The translations under genes and the position numbers were made by a program. Positions 30,985 through 39,132 of a stretch of 64,000 nucleotides of DNA are shown one piece after another. The stretch comes from an uncultured Oscillospiraceae bacterium (GTDB lineage Bacteria; Bacillota; Clostridia; Oscillospirales; Oscillospiraceae). Every line of letters starts with the position of its first letter. Within the stretch, counting starts at the first letter, position 1. The notes beneath the pieces were generated by a model. The model ran no database searches and was not told where the DNA came from. It worked only from the letters and a program-made list of their open reading frames with translations. The stretch covers positions 143-64,142 of the forward strand of contig CAUWCX010000008.1 of assembly GCA_963557105.1 (NCBI GenBank), given 5' to 3'.

Positions 30985-31021
30985 AAAAAGTAGCCGCCTC
31001 GATGAGGCGGCATACTTTTAC
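30985..31021. repeat. 37-bp perfect direct repeat copy 2
   Basis: Identical to 30177-30213. The two copies bracket the hicAB cassette. Confidence 0.85.
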
Positions 31022-31061
31022 TCGCATATCCGAACACATGTATCACAAAGGAGGCTAAGAC

Positions 31062-32195
31062 ATGACTTGCAGCCGCTGCCGCGCCGACCTGCCCGAAGGC
31101 GCCCGCTTCTGCCATATATGCGGGGCGAAGCTGAACCTCACGCAAAGAAGTAAAAATCGCGGGAATGGCCAGGGATCTGTATACCAGTTGAAAAACAAGA
31201 CCTGGTGCGCCGTGAAAACGGTTGGGTACTGGACGGATGATTCAGGAAAGGCCCACCGCAGCACACGGTCCAAATATGGATTTCGAACCAAGAAAGAGGC
31301 CCTGGATGCCCTATCCACTATTGAGGACCGGCGGGCCAAAAAGATCCCCACGCTGAAGGAACTCTATGATCTGTGGGAGCCAACGCACCGTGCCGGCCGG
31401 GATACAATGAACTGTTACAAGGCCGCCTTCGCCTACTTCCGCGTGTTATGGAACATCAAGATCAACAATATCGACATTGACGACCTGCAGGAGTGCATGG
31501 ACGACTGCCCCAAGGGGAAGCGCACCCGTCAGAACATGAAGGCGGTGTGTGGGCTGGTCTACAAATACGCTGTCCCCCGCGGGCTGGCCCAACTGAACCT
31601 TGGCCAATACCTCATCGTCGGGGATGGCGAGGACAGCAGCAAGGAGGGGCTGCCACCGGAGGAGCTGGATAAGCTGTGGAGCATCGCCAGCAGCCACACC
31701 GGGGCCGCCTACGCCGTTTGCCAGTGCTACCTGGGGTTCCGCCCCTCCGAGCTGCTGGCGCTGGATGTGGAGCGCTACAGCGCCCAGGAGAGGGCCTTTG
31801 TGGGTGGGGCCAAGACCGAGGCTGGACGGAACCGCACAGTGACCGTCTCCCCCAAGATCCAGCCCCTGGTCGATCGGATCATCAACGGCCGGACCTCTGG
31901 GCCGGTGTTCTGTGCCAATGACGGGAGCCGCCTTTCTCTAGAGATCTATCGGACAATGTTCTACGCCGCCCTGGAGGCGGCGGGGATCGACAATCCCATC
32001 AGCGAGCGCAACGGGATAAAATATCACCGGTACACGCCCCACAGCTGCCGTCACACCTTTGCCACGCTGATGAAGGGGGTCCCCGCCCCGACGGCCGACA
32101 AACTGAAATTGATCGGGCATACCACCGATGCCCAGCTGCGATACTATCAGGATGTGGACATCGAAAATCTACGGGCAATCACGGACCAAATCTGA
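31062..32195 (+). CDS. int: Tyrosine recombinase / phage integrase with N-terminal zinc ribbon
   Basis: MTCSRCRADLPEGARFCHICGAKL zinc ribbon. C-terminal catalytic signature HSCRHTFATLM ... LIGHTTDAQLRYYQD. Confidence 0.85.
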   Translation: MTCSRCRADLPEGARFCHICGAKLNLTQRSKNRGNGQGSVYQLKNKTWCAVKTVGYWTDDSGKAHRSTRSKYGFRTKKEALDALSTIEDRRAKKIPTLKELYDLWEPTHRAGRDTMNCYKAAFAYFRVLWNIKINNIDIDDLQECMDDCPKGKRTRQNMKAVCGLVYKYAVPRGLAQLNLGQYLIVGDGEDSSKEGLPPEELDKLWSIASSHTGAAYAVCQCYLGFRPSELLALDVERYSAQERAFVGGAKTEAGRNRTVTVSPKIQPLVDRIINGRTSGPVFCANDGSRLSLEIYRTMFYAALEAAGIDNPISERNGIKYHRYTPHSCRHTFATLMKGVPAPTADKLKLIGHTTDAQLRYYQDVDIENLRAITDQI

Positions 32196-32264
32196 CCAAA
32201 GCCACCCTGCAATAGCCCTGCAATAGGCCGATTTTTTTAACGACCCCAGAAATTCCCACAACGC

Positions 32265-32311
32265 AAAAAAGTACCGCAAACCAGCCTTTTCGACTGATTT
32301 GCGGTACTTTT
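32265..32311. terminator. Bidirectional terminator between integrase and tRNA-Pro
   Basis: AAAAAA GTACCGCAAA (32271-32280) ... TTTGCGGTAC (32298-32307) TTTT. Confidence 0.55.
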
Positions 32312-32387
32312 GGTCCGAGTGTCGAGATTCGAACTCGAGGCCTCTTGAACCCCATTCAAGCGCGATACCAAACTTCGCCACACCCGG
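32311..32387 (-). tRNA. tRNA-Pro (anticodon GGG)
   Basis: Hand-folded 77 nt: CCGGGTG/TG/GCGA-AGTTTGGTA-TCGC/G/CTTGA-ATGGGGT-TCAAG/AGGCC/TCGAG-TTCGAAT-CTCGA/CACTCGG/A/CCA. C1-G72 and A73 fit tRNA-Pro. Confidence 0.85.
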
Positions 32388-32586
32388 ATGGACCGTTTTG
32401 CTGAGCTCTCGCTGTCAGCTTAGTTAGAATACCATACCCCAAACTAAATTGCAAGTCTTTTTTGAAAAAAACTCAGAAAAAAATAGACAAAAGACATCCA
32501 TAATTTTCCATTCTGTTTGTGCGATTTTTTGTGTTGACAAAACCGCCCCCTCGTGGTAACATTTTAGACGCGCCTGAAACCGATTG

Positions 32587-32674
32587 GGAGAGATGTCCGA
32601 GCGGTTTAAGGAACCGGTCTTGAAAACCGGCGATGTGAAAACATCCGTGGGTTCGAATCCCACTCTCTCCGCCA
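32587..32674 (+). tRNA. tRNA-Ser (anticodon TGA)
   Basis: GGAGAGATGTCCGAGCGG.. with anticodon arm CCGGT-CTTGAAA-ACCGG, long variable arm, GGTTCGAATCC T-loop, CCA end. Confidence 0.9.
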
Positions 32675-32708
32675 TTTTTCATCACCGCCGCGCAAGTTCA
32701 TATCGTTT

Positions 32709-32800
32709 GCAGAAGTACCCAAGTGGCCGAAGGGGCTCCCCTGCTAAGGGAGTAGGCGTGTAAAAAGCGCGCGAGGGTTCAAATCCCTCCTTCTGCGCCA
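32709..32800 (+). tRNA. tRNA-Ser (anticodon GCT)
   Basis: GCAGAAGTACCCAAGTGG.. with anticodon arm CTCCC-CTGCTAA-GGGAG, long variable arm, GGTTCAAATCC T-loop, CCA end. Confidence 0.9.
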
Positions 32801-32964
32801 AAAGAAACCGTTGTATTCGTTATCGAATCAGCGGTTTCTTTGCATTTTAAGGCTGATTCTGATATTAAAAGTTGAATGCACAATCCCGTCAAAATCTGTT
32901 TACCCCTAAATTTACCCCAAACAGATAAAATACCCCGCCGAACAACTCCTTCGGCGGGATATTT

Positions 32965-34146
32965 TTACGCCTGCTTGGCGGCCAGATTATTATAGTATGT
33001 TTGCATCCGGGCAGCAGTGTCCTTTTTCATTTGGTCGCTGGTATGGGCATAGACATTCAAGGTAAAGCTGGCAGTAGCGTGTCCCAGCATATCCTGTACG
33101 CTCTTGATATCTGCACCGGCGGCAATCGCAACCGTGGCCGCTGTGTGCCGAAGATCGTGGGGCCGTGCATCTGGCCTGCCGATGCTTCCCGCAAGACGTT
33201 TAAAGGCTTTGTAAAAGGTGGACACCGCCAAATGCTTCCCCAGTTCATCCGTGAAAACGAGGTTGTCCGGGTTACTCCACAGCGGGCCAGCGGCCAGTTG
33301 ATTTTCAGCTTGCCGCCGCTTCTCTGCCCGCAGATATTGAAAAGCGATTTCGGGCGGCTCTATCTGCCGGGGCTTGCCACTCTTTGTACTGGCGGCAATA
33401 TAGTATTTTCCGCCCTTCTTCTTTTCACGCTGCAACTGCTGACTGATGACAATACGCCGTGCATCAAAATCGATTTGTCCCCAGGACAGCCCCATGCACT
33501 CCCCTTCTCGCAGTCCAGCGAACAGGCAGAGTGCAAAAGCATTCCCCATTGGATTTCCTTCAATGGCTTTCAGAAAGAGGGGAATCTCTGCATCCGTGAG
33601 CGGTTGGATTTCTTTATGTATGGCCTTCGGCAGTTCGGCGGCGTCACAGGGATTCGCTTGTATCATACCCTGCTTCAACGCCACAGAAAACGCTTTGTGC
33701 ATGATTGCAGAGACGTTTTTAACCGTCTTGGGTGAAAGCCCGTCAGCAGCCATTGCGTTATAGAGTTTTTGAATGTGGATACCGCGGACTGCCTGTAACC
33801 GAAGCGCACCTATCTGCGGTTTGATGTGGTTTTTGATTGCCGCCTCATAGCTGCTGTATGTCAGCGGTTTCAGCTTTGCAACACAAAATGTTCCCATCCA
33901 GGTATCCAGCCAGCTGGAAACCGTGGTTTTATCCGTTGGCCGATACGTCCCGTTATCAATTGCCCGCTGGGTATCCGTCATTTTTCGGCGGACTTCCGCC
34001 TGTGTCTTTCCATAGATGGATTTCCGAACCGGCTTTCCTGTTCCCGGATCAGCGCCAACGGTCAACCGCCCTTCCCAAGTGCCGTCCGGCCTCTGCCGGA
34101 TTGTCCCGGCCCCTGCCGCTGCACGAGTATTCGATTTTCTAGGCAT
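32965..34146 (-). CDS. int: Tyrosine-type site-specific integrase
   Basis: 393 aa. ARPHDLRHTAATVAIAAGADIKSVQDMLGHATASFTLNVYAH catalytic signature. N-terminal arm/SAM-like region. Confidence 0.9.
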   Translation of the reverse strand: MPRKSNTRAAAGAGTIRQRPDGTWEGRLTVGADPGTGKPVRKSIYGKTQAEVRRKMTDTQRAIDNGTYRPTDKTTVSSWLDTWMGTFCVAKLKPLTYSSYEAAIKNHIKPQIGALRLQAVRGIHIQKLYNAMAADGLSPKTVKNVSAIMHKAFSVALKQGMIQANPCDAAELPKAIHKEIQPLTDAEIPLFLKAIEGNPMGNAFALCLFAGLREGECMGLSWGQIDFDARRIVISQQLQREKKKGGKYYIAASTKSGKPRQIEPPEIAFQYLRAEKRRQAENQLAAGPLWSNPDNLVFTDELGKHLAVSTFYKAFKRLAGSIGRPDARPHDLRHTAATVAIAAGADIKSVQDMLGHATASFTLNVYAHTSDQMKKDTAARMQTYYNNLAAKQA

Positions 34147-34413
34147 TGCAAATCCTCCTTCAGTTGTGGTAAGATGGAGGAGCAGTAGGCGTGGGAGTTT
34201 ACTGCCCCCCTACCATAAGCGCAGAGGAAACGGAATTGGACGCAGGCGCTAGAAAAAACAGAACAAAAATCAAGAATGTGTTCCAGCACCCCCACTGAAT
34301 CATCCCTATTTTCAATAGTCTGGATATTTTTCATGATTATTTGTTCATCAGCAAAGAACAGTATCAAAAGCCGCTGACAGGCGGTAAACATATTTGTGTG
34401 TGAGGTAAAGAGA

Positions 34414-35307
34414 ATGGGGAAAGTATTCGGGGTTATTGTATTCCTTCTTTCATCGTTTATTTATCATGCAATAGGCAGTATGTTTTTTCCTGTGGATGAA
34501 GTAACAAATACACTTCTTGCGCCAGATTGGTATGTATTTGTTATTCTTGGGCTAGGTGCAGCTACTACATTTGGATTAAATTTTTTGATAAAGAAAAGAT
34601 CAAAATCCGATGTTTTAGGAGCGAGAAATCATATTGCTGAAGAAAATCTTCCTACTTTGTACGGAGATGCTATTGATTTGATTTTTAAGTACGACCAAGC
34701 TTCTGCAAGCCTGCTTCAAAGATATTTAAAGATCAGTTTTAGCAACGCGGAAAGCATATTGAAGTGTTTTGAATCAGCCAAAATAGTATCTGAGTTTTCT
34801 GGAACCTATCCGAGGATAATACTCGCAAGCGACCCAGCTTTTGCCAAAAGAATGTTAAACAGGTGGTTAGTTGAAAACGGTTCCTTGAGCAAAGGATCAA
34901 CTGAAAATTTGGGGGATAACGATTCAGTGAAACCAAATTTTAGCAAAATCGATTTTATGGCTGGTCATGATTTTGAATACTGGTGCGCTGACTTGTTGCG
35001 AAAAAATGAGTTTAAAAATGTAGAAGTTACAAAGGGGAGCGGAGATCAAGGCGTTGATGTTTTGGCCGAAAAAGGTGGCATCAAGTATGCTATTCAGTGC
35101 AAGTGCTATTCTAGCGACTTGGGAAATACGCCAATTCAAGAAGTTGAGGCAGGGCGTATTTTTTACGGTTGCCATGTGGGCGTTGTCATGACAAACCGTT
35201 ATTTTACAAAAGGCGCAAAAGAGCTTGCCGAAAAGACAAATACATTACTCTGGGATAGGGACTTTCTTTTCTCTCTTTCAAAAAATGTTGCTTTAGGAAA
35301 GGAGTAA
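34414..35307 (+). CDS. Membrane-anchored protein with FtsK-gamma-like wHTH and C-terminal Mrr-cat (PD-(D/E)xK) nuclease domain
   Basis: Two N-terminal TM helices. YGDAIDLIFKYDQASASLLQRYLKISFSNAESILKCFESAKIV (FtsK gamma-like). FEYWCADLLRKNEFKNVEVTKGSGDQGVDVLAEKGGIKYAIQCKCY..VVMTNRYFTKGAKELAEK (Mrr catalytic pattern). Confidence 0.7.
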   Translation: MGKVFGVIVFLLSSFIYHAIGSMFFPVDEVTNTLLAPDWYVFVILGLGAATTFGLNFLIKKRSKSDVLGARNHIAEENLPTLYGDAIDLIFKYDQASASLLQRYLKISFSNAESILKCFESAKIVSEFSGTYPRIILASDPAFAKRMLNRWLVENGSLSKGSTENLGDNDSVKPNFSKIDFMAGHDFEYWCADLLRKNEFKNVEVTKGSGDQGVDVLAEKGGIKYAIQCKCYSSDLGNTPIQEVEAGRIFYGCHVGVVMTNRYFTKGAKELAEKTNTLLWDRDFLFSLSKNVALGKE

Positions 35308-35530
35308 CACGAGAAAAGCACTAATGATAATCCATGTGTGCATCATTGCTCTATGGTTATGGCGACAGTTGGGTTTTCCCATCTATTTCCAGCCTGTTAG
35401 CGTTGGCATTTGTTTTAATCAGCTTGCCCATTAACAGACTTTTCTCCTTGTGGAACATGCAAACCTTAAAATTAAAATCCCCGCCGGGTTATGAGTGTTT
35501 TGTGATCGGATTCCCCCCTCCTTCTGCGCC

Positions 35531-35572
35531 AATCCGCAATCCATGATTTATCAATGGATTGCGGATTTTTCT
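35531..35572 (+). terminator. Terminator just outside the right repeat (probable original tRNA-operon terminator)
   Basis: AATCCGCAATCCAT (35531-35544) pairs with ATGGATTGCGGATT (35554-35567), followed by TTTTTC. Confidence 0.6.
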
Positions 35573-35674
35573 TTATCCCCTGTTCAGCAAGAGGCCCCGC
35601 CCATCACCGGGCGGAGCCTCTTTTCTTTTTGTTTCGTTTCTAAACGATCCCCAGTGTATTTGGCGGGCAGCGCA

Positions 35675-36394
35675 TCAGGCGAACTCATCCTCCTGTCGCT
35701 GCTGGATCATGCGGTAGCCCACGCCGATGTGGGTCTGGATGTACTGGGGATGGCTGGGATCGGCCTCCAGCTTCTTGCGCAGCGTGGCCATGAACACCCG
35801 CAGGGACGGGGTGTCGGCGGCCGTGGGGCTGCCCCAGACCTCCCCCAGGATATAGTTGTGGGTCAGCACCTTCCCGGTGTTTTTCGCCAGCAGGCACAGC
35901 AGCTTATACTCAATTGGGGTCAGGTGGACCTCCACGCCGTCCCGGTAAACGCACCCGGCGGCGTAGTCGATCCACAGTCCGCCGTTCTCGTAGACGCTGG
36001 ACTCCTCCCGGGCCCGCTGGCTGTCATAGCGCACCCGGCGCAGAGCCACCCACAGCCGGGCCAGCAGCTCGTCCACAGAGAAGGGCTTGGTGAGGTAGTC
36101 GTCCGCCCCGGCGTCCAGGGCGGCCACCTTGTCGCTGTCCTCGCTGCGGGCAGAGATCACAATAATGGGCAGATTGCTCCAGGCCCGCACCTTTTTGATG
36201 ACCTTCACCCCGTCCATATCGGGCAGGCCCAGGTCCAGCAGCATCACATCCGGCCGGTAGCTGAGGGCGTCCATAATGGCCCCCGCCCCGGATTTGGCCC
36301 GGTGGTACTGATAATTTTGCGTCTCCAGCGTTGTGGCGATGAGATTGCCCACAGCGGCGTCGTCCTCTACAATCAAGATCTGCGGCTTATTCAC
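35675..36394 (-). CDS. kdpE: OmpR-family response regulator, KdpE-like
   Basis: Receiver domain (ILIVEDD..DLGLPDMDG..) plus winged-helix output (HLTPIEYKLLCLLAKNTGKVLTHNYILGEVWG). Confidence 0.8.
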   Translation of the reverse strand: MNKPQILIVEDDAAVGNLIATTLETQNYQYHRAKSGAGAIMDALSYRPDVMLLDLGLPDMDGVKVIKKVRAWSNLPIIVISARSEDSDKVAALDAGADDYLTKPFSVDELLARLWVALRRVRYDSQRAREESSVYENGGLWIDYAAGCVYRDGVEVHLTPIEYKLLCLLAKNTGKVLTHNYILGEVWGSPTAADTPSLRVFMATLRKKLEADPSHPQYIQTHIGVGYRMIQQRQEDEFA

Positions 36395-37769
36395 AGCCTG
36401 TCACCTCCGAAGTTTGTAAGGTAAAGCGGAATACCGTCCCGTGGGGCGGATTGTCCAGGGCCTCAAGGGTCCCGCCGTGGGCCAGGATGATGGACCGGCA
36501 CAGGGCCAGTCCCAATCCCATCCCCCGCCGGCCATCCCCACGGGCGTTGTTTCCGGTATAAAACATCTCAAACAGCTTCCCCCGGGCCTCCGCCGGGATG
36601 CCGGGGCCGTCGTCGGCGATCTGCACCTGGACCTGCTCCCCCAGCCGCCGGGCGGAGAGGACGATGTGGGACCCCTCCGGCGTATATTTAATGGCATTGT
36701 TCACCATGTTGATCACCACCTGCACCATGAGCCGGGCGTCCATATCCGCCATAAGCAGGTCATCCTCCAGGTCCACGGCGATCTGGTGGCGGCTGGCATT
36801 GCGGTCCAGGTGGCCCAGGGCCTCACTGAACACATCCTCGATCAGCTCCGGCTGAAGGTTCAGCTTCATGGCGCCGCCCTCCATCCGGGTGATGGACAGC
36901 AGGTTCTCCACCAGGCTGATGAGCCACATGGCGTCGTCGTAGATGGAGACATAGAGGCCCTGCCGCTTCTCCTCGTCCAGCACCGCGCCGTTGCGCATGA
37001 GGATGCCGGCGTTGCCGGATATGCTGGTGAGCGGGGTCCGCAGGTCGTGGGAGATGGCCCACAGAAGATTGGCCCGCAGGGCCTCCTGCCGTGCCTCCTC
37101 CTCCACCCGCTGCTTGGCGGCCACCATGCGCTCCTTCTCCAGGGCCAGGCCGCACTCGCCCAGAATGGCGGTCATGAGGTTCTTCTCAAAGGCGTCCGGC
37201 CTGCGCCGCGCCGTCACCGCAACGCCCACCACCGCCAGGACACGGCCGGAGCCCCGCACCGCCATGTAGAAGCACGCCGCATCCGGCAGCGTGCCGGTGG
37301 TCGCCCCGGCGTGCTTGTTGTTTTTGCACACCCACTCCGCAGCGGCCCGCTCCTCCCCCGTCAGCAGGGCGTCCATATCCGCCTGCGCCAACACGGGGAA
37401 GCGCATGGCCTCCTGCAGCTCTCCCGCCTCGTCCACCGGGTAGATCACCAGATCCCGCTCCAGGAGCTTTTTCAGCTGGGTGGCGGTGACGGACAGTATG
37501 GCCGCGTCCCCCTCCGCCTTCTGCAGCTTCCGGCTGGTCTCCAGCAGCACCTCCGTGCGGTAGGCCTTGTTGGCGCTCTGGACCGCCTGGCGCTTGATGC
37601 GGGTGGTCAGGGAGCTGCCCAGCAGAGCCACAATGAACATCACCCCAAAGGTGGCCAGGTAACTGGGGTCGCTCATGAGGGTGAAGTAGGGGGAGGTGAA
37701 GAAAAAGTTGAAGATCAGCACGGAGAGGACCGACGCCGCCATGCTGTAGCTCCGGCCAGTGGTGACCAT
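36387..37769 (-). CDS. Sensor histidine kinase, KdpD C-terminal type (DUF4118-like TM, GAF-like, HisKA, HATPase); possibly 5'-truncated
   Basis: ISHDLRTPLTSI H-box and a DDGPGIP..GLGLALCRSI ATPase. SVLSVLIFNFFFTSPYFTL matches the KdpD membrane region. Start assigned to ATG 37767-37769. The longer track ORF is antisense to trkH. Confidence 0.65.
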   Translation of the reverse strand: MVTTGRSYSMAASVLSVLIFNFFFTSPYFTLMSDPSYLATFGVMFIVALLGSSLTTRIKRQAVQSANKAYRTEVLLETSRKLQKAEGDAAILSVTATQLKKLLERDLVIYPVDEAGELQEAMRFPVLAQADMDALLTGEERAAAEWVCKNNKHAGATTGTLPDAACFYMAVRGSGRVLAVVGVAVTARRRPDAFEKNLMTAILGECGLALEKERMVAAKQRVEEEARQEALRANLLWAISHDLRTPLTSISGNAGILMRNGAVLDEEKRQGLYVSIYDDAMWLISLVENLLSITRMEGGAMKLNLQPELIEDVFSEALGHLDRNASRHQIAVDLEDDLLMADMDARLMVQVVINMVNNAIKYTPEGSHIVLSARRLGEQVQVQIADDGPGIPAEARGKLFEMFYTGNNARGDGRRGMGLGLALCRSIILAHGGTLEALDNPPHGTVFRFTLQTSEVTGCE

Positions 37770-37791
37770 GGACACCCCCAGCACTCCCAGG

Positions 37792-39132
37792 ATGAAGAGC
37801 GAGCGTGTCTCGCCGGCCCAGATCATTATTCTGGGCTTTCTGTTTTTGATCCTGGGCGGCGCGCTGCTGCTCACCCTGCCCATTGCCACCAACGGCCCCG
37901 GCGGGGCCTCCTTCTTCGACGCCCTCTTTACCGCCACCTCCGCCACCTGCGTCACCGGCCTGGTGGTCCACGACACCTCCCTGTACTGGTCGCCCTTCGG
38001 GCAGCTGGTCATCCTGCTGCTGATCCAGATCGGCGGCATGGGCGTGGTCACCACGGCGGTGGCCATCTTTATGTTCTCCGGCAGGCGCATCGGCCTGAAG
38101 CAGCGCTGGGTCATGCAGGAGTCCATCTCCGCCCCCCAGGTGGGCGGCATCGTCCGCATGACCAGCTTCATTTTAAAGGCCGCTTTCTCCATCGAAGCCG
38201 CCGGGGCCATTCTGCTGGCTCTGCGCTTCTGCCCCCAGTTTGGCTTTTGGAAAGGGCTGTGGTACGCCGTTTTCCACGCCATTTCCGCCTTCTGCAACGC
38301 AGGCTTCGACCTCATGGGCACGGAAAGCGCCGCCTACTCCTCCCTCACCGCCTACACCGGCGACCCCCTGATCAGCGGGACCATCGCCGGGCTGATCATC
38401 CTGGGTGGCCTGGGCTTTCTCACCTGGCACGATGTCCGGGACCACGGCGTCCACTTCCGCCGCTACCGCCTGCAGAGCAAGCTGATCCTCTGTACCACGG
38501 CGGCGCTGCTGCTGGGCGGCTTTCTCTTCTTTGCCCTCTACGAGTTCCGTCTGCCCCAGTGGCAGGGCCTCACCGGGCAGGAGCGGGTGGTGGCCGCGGC
38601 CTTCCAGTCGGTGACCCCCCGCACCGCCGGGTTCAACACCGTGGATCTCACCCAGCTCAGCTCCCCCAGCCTGCTGCTGATGATCCTGCTGATGCTCACC
38701 GGCGGCGCCCCCGGCTCCACCGCCGGCGGCTTCAAGGTCACCACCCTGGTGATCCTGCTGCTGAGCGTCCGGGCGGTGTTCCGCCGAAAGGACAGCGCCC
38801 AGTGCTTTGGTCGCCGCCTGCCGGAGGATGTGCTCCCCAGCGCCAGCGCCATCTTTATCCTGTATCTGCTGCTGTTTTTGGCCAGCGGCGTAGCCATCTG
38901 CTGTCTGGACGGCATCCCCCTCATGAGCGCCCTCTTTGAGACCGCCTCCGCCATTGGCACCGTGGGGCTGTCCCTGGCCGGCACCGCCGCCCTCTCCGTC
39001 CCCTCCCGGATGATCCTCATCTTCCTGATGTACTTCGGCCGGGTGGGCGGCCTGACCATGATCTACGCCGTCATCGCCGGCGGGCGCAGCTCCGGCGCCC
39101 AGTACCCCCAGGAGCGTGTTACTGTTGGATAA
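37792..39132 (+). CDS. trkH: TrkH/KtrB-family potassium uptake membrane subunit
   Basis: MKSERVSPAQIIILGFLFLILGGALLLTLP..FDALFTATSATCVTGL, plus repeated pore-loop motifs (GFNT, GGAPGSTAGGFK). Confidence 0.85.
   Translation: MKSERVSPAQIIILGFLFLILGGALLLTLPIATNGPGGASFFDALFTATSATCVTGLVVHDTSLYWSPFGQLVILLLIQIGGMGVVTTAVAIFMFSGRRIGLKQRWVMQESISAPQVGGIVRMTSFILKAAFSIEAAGAILLALRFCPQFGFWKGLWYAVFHAISAFCNAGFDLMGTESAAYSSLTAYTGDPLISGTIAGLIILGGLGFLTWHDVRDHGVHFRRYRLQSKLILCTTAALLLGGFLFFALYEFRLPQWQGLTGQERVVAAAFQSVTPRTAGFNTVDLTQLSSPSLLLMILLMLTGGAPGSTAGGFKVTTLVILLLSVRAVFRRKDSAQCFGRRLPEDVLPSASAIFILYLLLFLASGVAICCLDGIPLMSALFETASAIGTVGLSLAGTAALSVPSRMILIFLMYFGRVGGLTMIYAVIAGGRSSGAQYPQERVTVG

Follow-up and report, generated by a model that had tools for sequence, protein, structure and literature searches.

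A 2.7-kb islet at tRNA-Ser(GCT) in an uncultured Oscillospiraceae bacterium, probably a stranded satellite remnant with a predicted membrane-anchored nuclease

The stretch of DNA analysed here, 64,000 nucleotides of contig CAUWCX010000008.1 from an uncultured Oscillospiraceae bacterium (assembly GCA_963557105.1) and referred to below as the window, carries a 2.7-kb islet that is a genuine site-specific integration at the 3' end of a tRNA-Ser(GCT) gene. The genes with recognised domains that it holds are a tyrosine integrase and a single cargo gene, predicted to encode a membrane-anchored nuclease. With moderate confidence, we favour a joint explanation in which the islet is an integrated satellite remnant whose interior has been swapped and which has become stranded, and in which the cargo is an exclusion or defence nuclease. 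By this account, a tyrosine integrase with an arm-binding N-terminus would have inserted an ancestral element of 7-9 kb, resembling the phage-inducible chromosomal islands (PICI), into the tRNA-Ser(GCT) 3' end, and this element would have rebuilt the tRNA end and brought its own terminator. The whole interior, from 60 bp upstream of the integrase gene (int) to just before attR, would then have been exchanged for a 1.3-kb AT-rich segment with one gene, whose family normally sits in prophage lysogeny modules, so that the two att cores, the P' arm, the intact integrase and the cargo gene are what is left. We infer this replacement history, the immobility and the defence role from the following features of the window and from their counterparts in related genomes.

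32709..32800, plus strand: tRNA-Ser(GCT), the integration target, intact and with CCA encoded (ARAGORN)
32785..32801, plus strand: attL core, copy 1 of a 17-bp direct repeat (exact-match search)
32801..32845, plus strand: element-borne hairpin terminator (hairpin 32801-32841), now ending the tRNA transcript (-23.2 kcal/mol, z = -8.2)
32898..32936, plus strand: three (T/A)TACCCC repeats at 32901, 32913 and 32931, putative arm-type (P') integrase sites (conservation)
32927..32965, minus strand: integrase-gene terminator hairpin (-25.0 kcal/mol, z = -6.3)
32965..34146, minus strand: tyrosine integrase, 393 amino acids (Pfam Phage_integrase, PF00589, 4.6e-25, and Phage_int_SAM_3, 4.4e-12; PHROG phrog_1)
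34147..34208, minus strand: integrase leader, the last ~60 bp common to the satellite-like relatives (blastn against L030-L033)
34209..35515, plus strand: AT-rich (39% GC) probable replacement segment of 1.3 kb and foreign origin, which holds the cargo (GC, blastn, tblastn)
34414..35307, plus strand: cargo gene for a predicted membrane-anchored nuclease, 297 amino acids (Pfam FtsK_gamma, 6e-12, and Mrr_cat, PF04471, 1.3e-26)
35516..35532, plus strand: attR core, copy 2 of the 17-bp direct repeat, the displaced native tRNA 3' end (exact-match search)
35531..35576, plus strand: probable native tRNA-cluster terminator (hairpin 35531-35567 plus U-run; -21.8 kcal/mol, z = -6.0)

The two ends of the islet are exact copies of a 17-mer, CCCTCCTTCTGCGCCAA, at 32785-32801 and 35516-35532, the first of which is the tRNA-Ser(GCT) 3' end (the acceptor 3' strand plus CCA). 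No further copy was found in the window with up to two mismatches allowed, two matches arose in none of 100 shuffles, and in the entire assembly (2,573,504 bp in 130 contigs) the 17-mer occurs at these two places only, at one mismatch or fewer. The boundaries given in the initial annotation of this stretch, 32785-35532, are therefore right, and the additional genomic copies that it had named as fatal to them are absent. It had also read the gene content correctly as a tyrosine integrase and one AT-rich nuclease gene: the remaining open reading frames between the repeats (34062-34391 on the minus strand and 35334-35546 on the plus strand) match no Pfam or PHROG family, and we find no other convincing gene there. 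GC content is 53% in the integrase gene, 38% in the cargo gene and 39% in the replacement segment, and it steps at the islet edge from 39-53% inside to 64% in the right-hand chromosome.

The reality of the att site is confirmed by a survey of the genus, in which 49 species were each represented by one genome. Integrase orthologues 62-70% identical to that of the islet were found in four of them, in G003, G012 and G050 with an element at the same tRNA-Ser(GCT) and in G053 with an element at tRNA-Ser(GGA). The tRNA-Ser(GCT) site is occupied in G000, G003, G012 and G050 (in the last of these the contig ends short of attR) and unoccupied in G001, G010 and G021, so both states of the site are seen between species. 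The G003 and G012 elements, of 7.4 kb and 3.1 kb, are each bounded by two exact copies of CCCTCCTTCCGCGCCAA, which is the variant of the core found in those hosts. It differs from the window core by a single T/C change, which forms the 3' half of a compensatory pair in the acceptor stem, the stem reading GCAGAAG/CTTCTGC in the window species and GCGGAAG/CTTCCGC in the other species (A:T for G:C), and the host's own tRNA variant is present in both att copies of every element checked. Repeats that track the host tRNA variant in this manner are expected of attP x attB recombination, and because each of the G003 and G012 elements has its host's form of the 17-mer on either side, the att site is a real one. 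These two elements are as follows.

G003 (locus L023, contig C8), 436-7864: 7.4-kb satellite-like element with int, an HTH_3 repressor, a Toprim/AAA_25 primase-helicase, a PDDEXK_15-like gene and a ParE/RHH pair beside attR
G012 (locus L024, contig C23), 12689-15832: 3.1-kb element at tRNA-Ser(GCT) with an HTH_17 Xis-like gene, two small open reading frames and a Uma2-family nuclease

The alternative cargo that the initial annotation had proposed to seek at this att site thus exists, as the ParE/RHH pair of the 7.4-kb element and as the Uma2 nuclease and HTH_17 Xis-like gene of the 3.1-kb element. The latter element has att repeats of 25 bp and arm-type repeats at both ends, and its HTH_17 gene lies directly upstream of an integrase gene broken by one TGA and one TAG; it is a second, independently reduced islet at the same tRNA, likewise with a nuclease. 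More distant relatives of the integrase (42-47% identical) abut tRNA-Leu, tRNA-Cys, tRNA-Gln and tRNA-Ser(GGA), and in three of the tRNA-end loci retrieved (L031, L035 and L040) an element of 6.7-9.1 kb is bounded by repeats of 23-27 bp.

The same comparison accounts for the two terminators that flank the islet. In the unoccupied sites of G001, G010 and G021, a hairpin terminator lies directly 3' of the tRNA, as it does at the window's attR, and this layout in other species supports the earlier proposal that the strong terminator after the second repeat is the original one of the tRNA operon. The element-borne terminator has a counterpart at the same position in the elements of G003, G012 and L031. 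This terminator after the first repeat (32801-32841) had not been mentioned in the initial annotation.

The integrase itself starts with a region of the arm-binding type, continues with a SAM-like core-binding domain and ends in a catalytic domain with a complete catalytic set (R213, H330-x-x-R333, H356 and Y366; motif positions), and the solved structure closest to it by sequence is Tn1549 Int (6EMY/6EN0, 2e-19). The islet thus has the direct repeats, one of them a tRNA 3' end, and the R..HxxR..H..Y recombinase beside the tRNA-proximal att that mark tRNA-targeting elements. It lacks the combination of an excisionase (Xis) or recombination directionality factor with arm-type sites on both arms, which bears on its activity and not on its origin. 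In its N-terminal region, SAM-like core-binding domain and catalytic residues, the integrase resembles both the Tn916/Tn1549 family and phage arm-binding integrases. Unlike either, it has no partner Xis, and whereas Tn916 and Tn1549 choose AT-rich targets, it is site-specific for tRNA 3' ends. At the amino-acid level (dN) it has diverged from its relatives no more than they have from one another; pairwise dN/dS is saturated at synonymous sites, and the comparison is informative through dN only.

The integrase's closest relatives, 70-83% identical, point to a satellite ancestry. They are found in G003 and in four loci (L030-L033; 81-83% identical in amino acids), which are recorded as Oscillibacter valericigenes and as uncultured Oscillospiraceae or Clostridia. 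In the elements of these relatives, int is followed by a CI-like HTH_3 repressor of 220-250 amino acids, by small genes, and then by either a zinc-ribbon/Toprim plus AAA_25 primase-helicase of ~615 amino acids or a DnaB-like helicase. L030, L031 and G003 all combine int, the HTH_3 repressor and a primase/AAA_25 or DnaB-like helicase, and L031 additionally carries sigma-70-like and small-terminase-like (terS-like) genes. When a PICI-like satellite is defined by an integrase, a repressor and a primase/helicase module, usually with packaging-interference genes, within 7-20 kb, these three elements belong to the class, and the window islet, with its integrase and one cargo gene in 2.7 kb, does not. 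As in PICI and minimalist satellites (PICMI, PMC10803314; SatelliteFinder survey, PMC10085698), the closest relatives of the islet integrase reside in elements, 7.4-9.1 kb long in those with both att ends located, that carry int, a CI-like repressor and a primase/helicase and that are inserted at tRNA 3' ends with att repeats. In the islet, by contrast, the repressor and the replication module are gone, as are any packaging genes, and for that reason it stands outside the satellite definition.

The point at which this ancestry breaks off can be located. Nucleotide homology to L030-L033 (blastn) runs from 32715 (L030) or from ~32901 (L031 and L033) to 34208 and ends there, and a tblastn search of 34100-35600 with all open reading frames of six related elements returned only noise in place of satellite gene remnants. 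The homology stop at 34208 and the lack of remnants would mark 34209-35515 as a foreign replacement and not as decayed satellite DNA. The islet is better seen as cut down from a PICI-like family of satellites than as minimal by design.

The cargo protein is predicted to consist of three parts.

Residues about 2-24 and 39-65: transmembrane (TM) helices
Residues about 80-138: FtsK-gamma winged helix
Residues 181-288: Mrr_cat PD-(D/E)XK nuclease domain

In an AlphaFold2 (AF2) model built on a 30-sequence alignment (mean pLDDT 88.8), the two hydrophobic helices form a TM helical hairpin at pLDDT >90. When this model was compared by Foldseek, its winged helix superposed on FtsK-gamma structures at 1.0-1.8 A, and its PD-(D/E)XK domain was structurally nearest MspJI, AF1548 and AspBHI. 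The nuclease core is almost invariant across 30 homologues (E188, D211, D215, Q228 and K230), and the conserved D...(Q/E)xK that defines the Mrr family is present. Since KKRSK follows the second TM helix, the soluble domains are predicted by the positive-inside rule to be cytoplasmic. A motif conserved in the family, FPVDExTNTLxAPDWY (alignment A1; residues 1-65, window 34414-34610), lies in the loop that joins the TM helices and suggests that the outer face may have a specific contact partner, for instance a host entry protein or some part of the phage.

Homologues of the cargo number >2,800, both domains being present in nearly all of the best 120 listed, and the nearest is 60% identical; within the genus the gene is sporadic, with a homologue in only 5 of the 49 species. 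The FtsK-gamma/Mrr family is widespread in prophages of gut Clostridia, and nothing specific on such a fusion was found in the literature. In prophage lysogeny modules, a CI-like HTH_3/Peptidase_S24 repressor immediately precedes each of three independent homologues (42-60% identical), one of them followed by Abi_2 and a serine recombinase and another (L245) by a 377-amino-acid integrase 55% identical to that of the prophage neighbouring the islet in the window. The slot after the CI repressor is the classical position for genes that are expressed in the lysogen and exclude other phages. In the window's prophage, the slot that corresponds to that of L245 after the S24 repressor holds an HsdR_N nuclease and hicAB. 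Comparison of the cargo flanks with the loci of the prophage homologues (tblastn and blastn) revealed neither a CI-type repressor remnant upstream of the cargo nor a donor of the segment.

Such a context and architecture would fit a constitutive exclusion or defence nuclease that the TM hairpin holds at the inner face of the membrane, where the winged helix would bind DNA and the Mrr-type domain would cut it, and we consider a defence role slightly more probable than its absence. The plan of a winged-helix DNA reader before the nuclease and the Mrr_cat catalytic domain are shared with type IV restriction endonucleases of the Mrr/MspJI type; the reader, in contrast to theirs, is of FtsK-gamma type and not Mrr_N or SRA-like, and the protein is predicted to be membrane-anchored. 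The cargo may be analogous to SNIPE (PD-lambda-1), in which one TM segment, DUF4041 and a GIY-YIG nuclease are combined, and in which the membrane tether keeps the nuclease off the chromosome while phage DNA is cut during injection (Saxton et al., Nature 2026, PMC13190303). The cargo would share with SNIPE the plan of a single protein with a membrane anchor, a DNA-binding domain and a nuclease on the cytoplasmic side, and it may work by the same logic from unrelated domains. It is not homologous to SNIPE, since its predicted parts are a pair of TM helices joined by a conserved outer loop, a winged helix of FtsK-gamma type and an Mrr_cat PD-(D/E)XK nuclease, and membership of SNIPE was rejected as Pfam gives FtsK_gamma and Mrr_cat and not DUF4041 and GIY-YIG. 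Assignment to a known anti-phage system of PADLOC was likewise rejected, the matches in PADLOC-DB v2 (ZorD C-terminus, PDC-S02 and LmuA) being confined to the nuclease domain and falling short of full length.

The loss of mobility is suggested by the arrangement of short repeats near the att cores. In the relatives, the same-strand motif (T/A)TACCC(C/T) occurs in 2-3 copies in the interval from the element-borne terminator to the int stop codon, 100-150 bp inside attL, and again in 1-3 copies 120-160 bp inside attR. The TACCC[CT] repeats at the two ends of three of these elements lie at the following positions.

L031: 9932/9944/9963 and 18790/18802
G012: 194/206/213 and 3047/3072/3084
G003: 523/540 and 7689

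The three repeats on the attL side of the window islet stand in a context nearly identical to that of L031, and their position, orientation and 12-bp spacing are kept in L031, G012, G003 and G050 despite diverged surroundings. Because the N-terminus of the integrase is of the arm-binding type and its nearest solved structure is Tn1549 Int, these repeats are probably arm-type integrase sites. On the attR side of the window, no TACCC[CT] repeat was found, and the T-loop match that precedes the attR core in the relatives (AATTCAAAT) is altered (GATTCCCC). The missing excisionase for which the initial annotation had recommended a search is indeed missing, in that neither Pfam nor PHROG identified an HTH_17/Xis-type open reading frame in the islet, whereas G012 has one beside int. 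Without an excisionase and without recognisable arm sites at attR, the islet is most likely stranded; we think it probable that it is inherited vertically and at best mobilisable with help in trans, and the earlier suggestion that it may still be excisable is doubtful.

The distribution of the islet is uniform in the sequences at hand. All 24 contigs read that carry an identical integrase show the same neighbours, with no presence/absence polymorphism. Two further assemblies are identical over 31000-38000 and a third differs at 10 sites, all of them outside 32248-36466, so that the islet has no differences among the three. Metagenome and viral contig collections contain at least 179 occurrences of the core, and none of those listed is an attB/attP junction of the islet; 84 of them are tRNA-Ser ends in other contexts.

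Several observations weigh against the explanation that we favour. A degenerate pair, TTTTCCCAT / TATTTCC, lies at 35374-35395, at the distance from the core that arm-type sites would be expected to have. The arm-type role is deduced from conservation only, and the absence of repeats at attR is no proof of immobility. The full-length integrase, with all catalytic residues and no excess divergence, may still be active, and att cores that are still identical favour recent integration or retained function. The PADLOC matches are at the level of a domain only, and a defence role would rest on context and architecture. Finally, the pre-insertion state is not seen directly: no empty site with the same flank was found among the available relatives, including a sister species (Yanshouia hominis, NCBI name) with a 91%-identical kdpE, and exact look-ups of kdpE and the integrase returned islet-bearing contigs only. 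In that sister species, synteny ends exactly at the kdpE stop codon (35684) and no tRNA is present there, so that it offers no same-flank attB.

If the integrase is active, the islet could be a self-sufficient minimal mobile element, in which the integrase alone excises and re-integrates the DNA and thereby ferries one defence gene. We regard this as unlikely. In its favour, purifying selection acts on an intact integrase, the two 17-bp cores match exactly, terminators at both ends leave the tRNA operon undisturbed, and E. coli is known to have islands at integration hotspots that combine defence genes with an integrase only and whose means of movement are unclear (Hochhauser et al. 2023, PLoS Genet, PMC10121019). 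However, such an element would have to move with no excisionase or recombination directionality factor and, despite the arm-binding-type N-terminus of its integrase, with an attR devoid of the arm-type repeats that relatives have at both ends, and its int-cargo pair occupies a single chromosomal context in 24 of 24 contigs read, with no attB/attP junction among the core occurrences listed (at least 179) in the two public collections. Alternatively, the islet could be a non-autonomous but mobilisable "satellite of a satellite", excised and packaged with Xis, replication and capsids supplied in trans by a full-length satellite of the same integrase family or by a helper prophage, an idea raised for integrase-only islands (PMC10121019). 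Related genomes do contain full-length relatives that have the same arm motif and 70-83% identical integrases; a prophage is found at tRNA-Pro, at a distance of 400 bp, and 11 further, weaker integrase matches occur in the islet's own genome. The next best of these is only 33% identical, however, which leaves the islet without a cognate partner there; P-arm sites are absent, and the islet has no recognisable replication origin module or pac/cos-like feature, which together make this reading decidedly unlikely. Only a small chance can be given to a two-gene mobile unit that still functions and is excised in response to a related satellite or helper phage acting in trans, or to its own FtsK-gamma protein acting on the integrase as on XerD; were it true, no smaller hitch-hiking defence carrier would be known, and the islet would be parasitic on phage satellites.

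The last of these ideas can be taken further, to a cargo whose FtsK-gamma domain serves the recombinase by switching on the neighbouring integrase at the membrane or septum in place of an excisionase. FtsK-gamma is known to activate a tyrosine recombinase (XerD), the XerD/FtsK-gamma fusion structure 5DCF is among the integrase's PDB matches, the winged helix superposes closely on FtsK-gamma, and the integrase and cargo are the islet's only two genes. We nevertheless judge this very improbable, since the constant neighbour of the homologues is a CI-like repressor and not a tyrosine recombinase (a serine recombinase neighbours one homologue, and no recombinase lies within 3 kb of another), conservation in the family is highest at the nuclease active site, and the cargo would have joined the integrase only through the replacement event. 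Scarcely tenable is a repeat that arose by chance or duplication among ordinary chromosomal genes, with no inserted element at all. The failure to find an empty site with the same right flank would be in its favour, but it is effectively refuted by the uniqueness of the 17-mer to the two ends, by the recurrence of the layout of tRNA end, element terminator, arm repeats and integrase in three other species and by the host-matched repeats at both ends of the two complete elements, and it is further opposed by the step in GC from 39-53% inside to 64% outside.

The stranded satellite remnant that we favour is an ordinary kind of genomic islet and implies no new mechanism, integrase-only defence islands being already known. 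Like the E. coli islands, it pairs an integrase with a defence-type gene, has no other mobility genes and sits at a hotspot that other elements use; it differs from them in its host, an Oscillospiraceae-type member of the Clostridia, in its size of only 2.7 kb and in its traceable satellite-like descent. It would illustrate a route by which a defence-type gene is fixed beside a tRNA: the integrase and one att arm of a satellite-like element are retained, and a gene out of a prophage lysogeny module takes the place of the interior. The islet also adds one independent genomic setting for the predicted membrane-anchored FtsK-gamma/Mrr nucleases, a family that is a good candidate for a defence that cuts DNA at the injection stage with parts different from those of SNIPE. 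In itself the islet alters no current concept, and its significance is modest.

The surroundings of the islet yielded further observations. The tRNA-Ser(GCT) end is also used by other integrase lineages. Many IMG/VR contigs of ~40 kb from dataset 3300045988 (L178-L228, e.g. L185, L197 and L207) start right after a tRNA-Ser(GCT) whose body is identical to that of the window and share the flank AAGTACCAAGAATCAATCA...; no relative of the integrase was found near the core in the stretches fetched, and the presence of such prophages at the same 17-bp end identifies it as a hotspot for unrelated prophages. On the far side of the three-tRNA cluster, a second integrase of 377 amino acids with an N-terminal zinc ribbon (31062-32387) ends 115 bp from tRNA-Pro(GGG), and the cluster is thus flanked on both sides by mobile elements. 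To the right of the islet, the window kinase (36387-37798) matches only the C-terminal half of KdpD, and homology to the sister species, which has a full-length KdpD of 896 amino acids with the PF02702 sensor domain (L283/L287), resumes directly in trkH, so that the N-terminal half of KdpD is deleted in the window genome.

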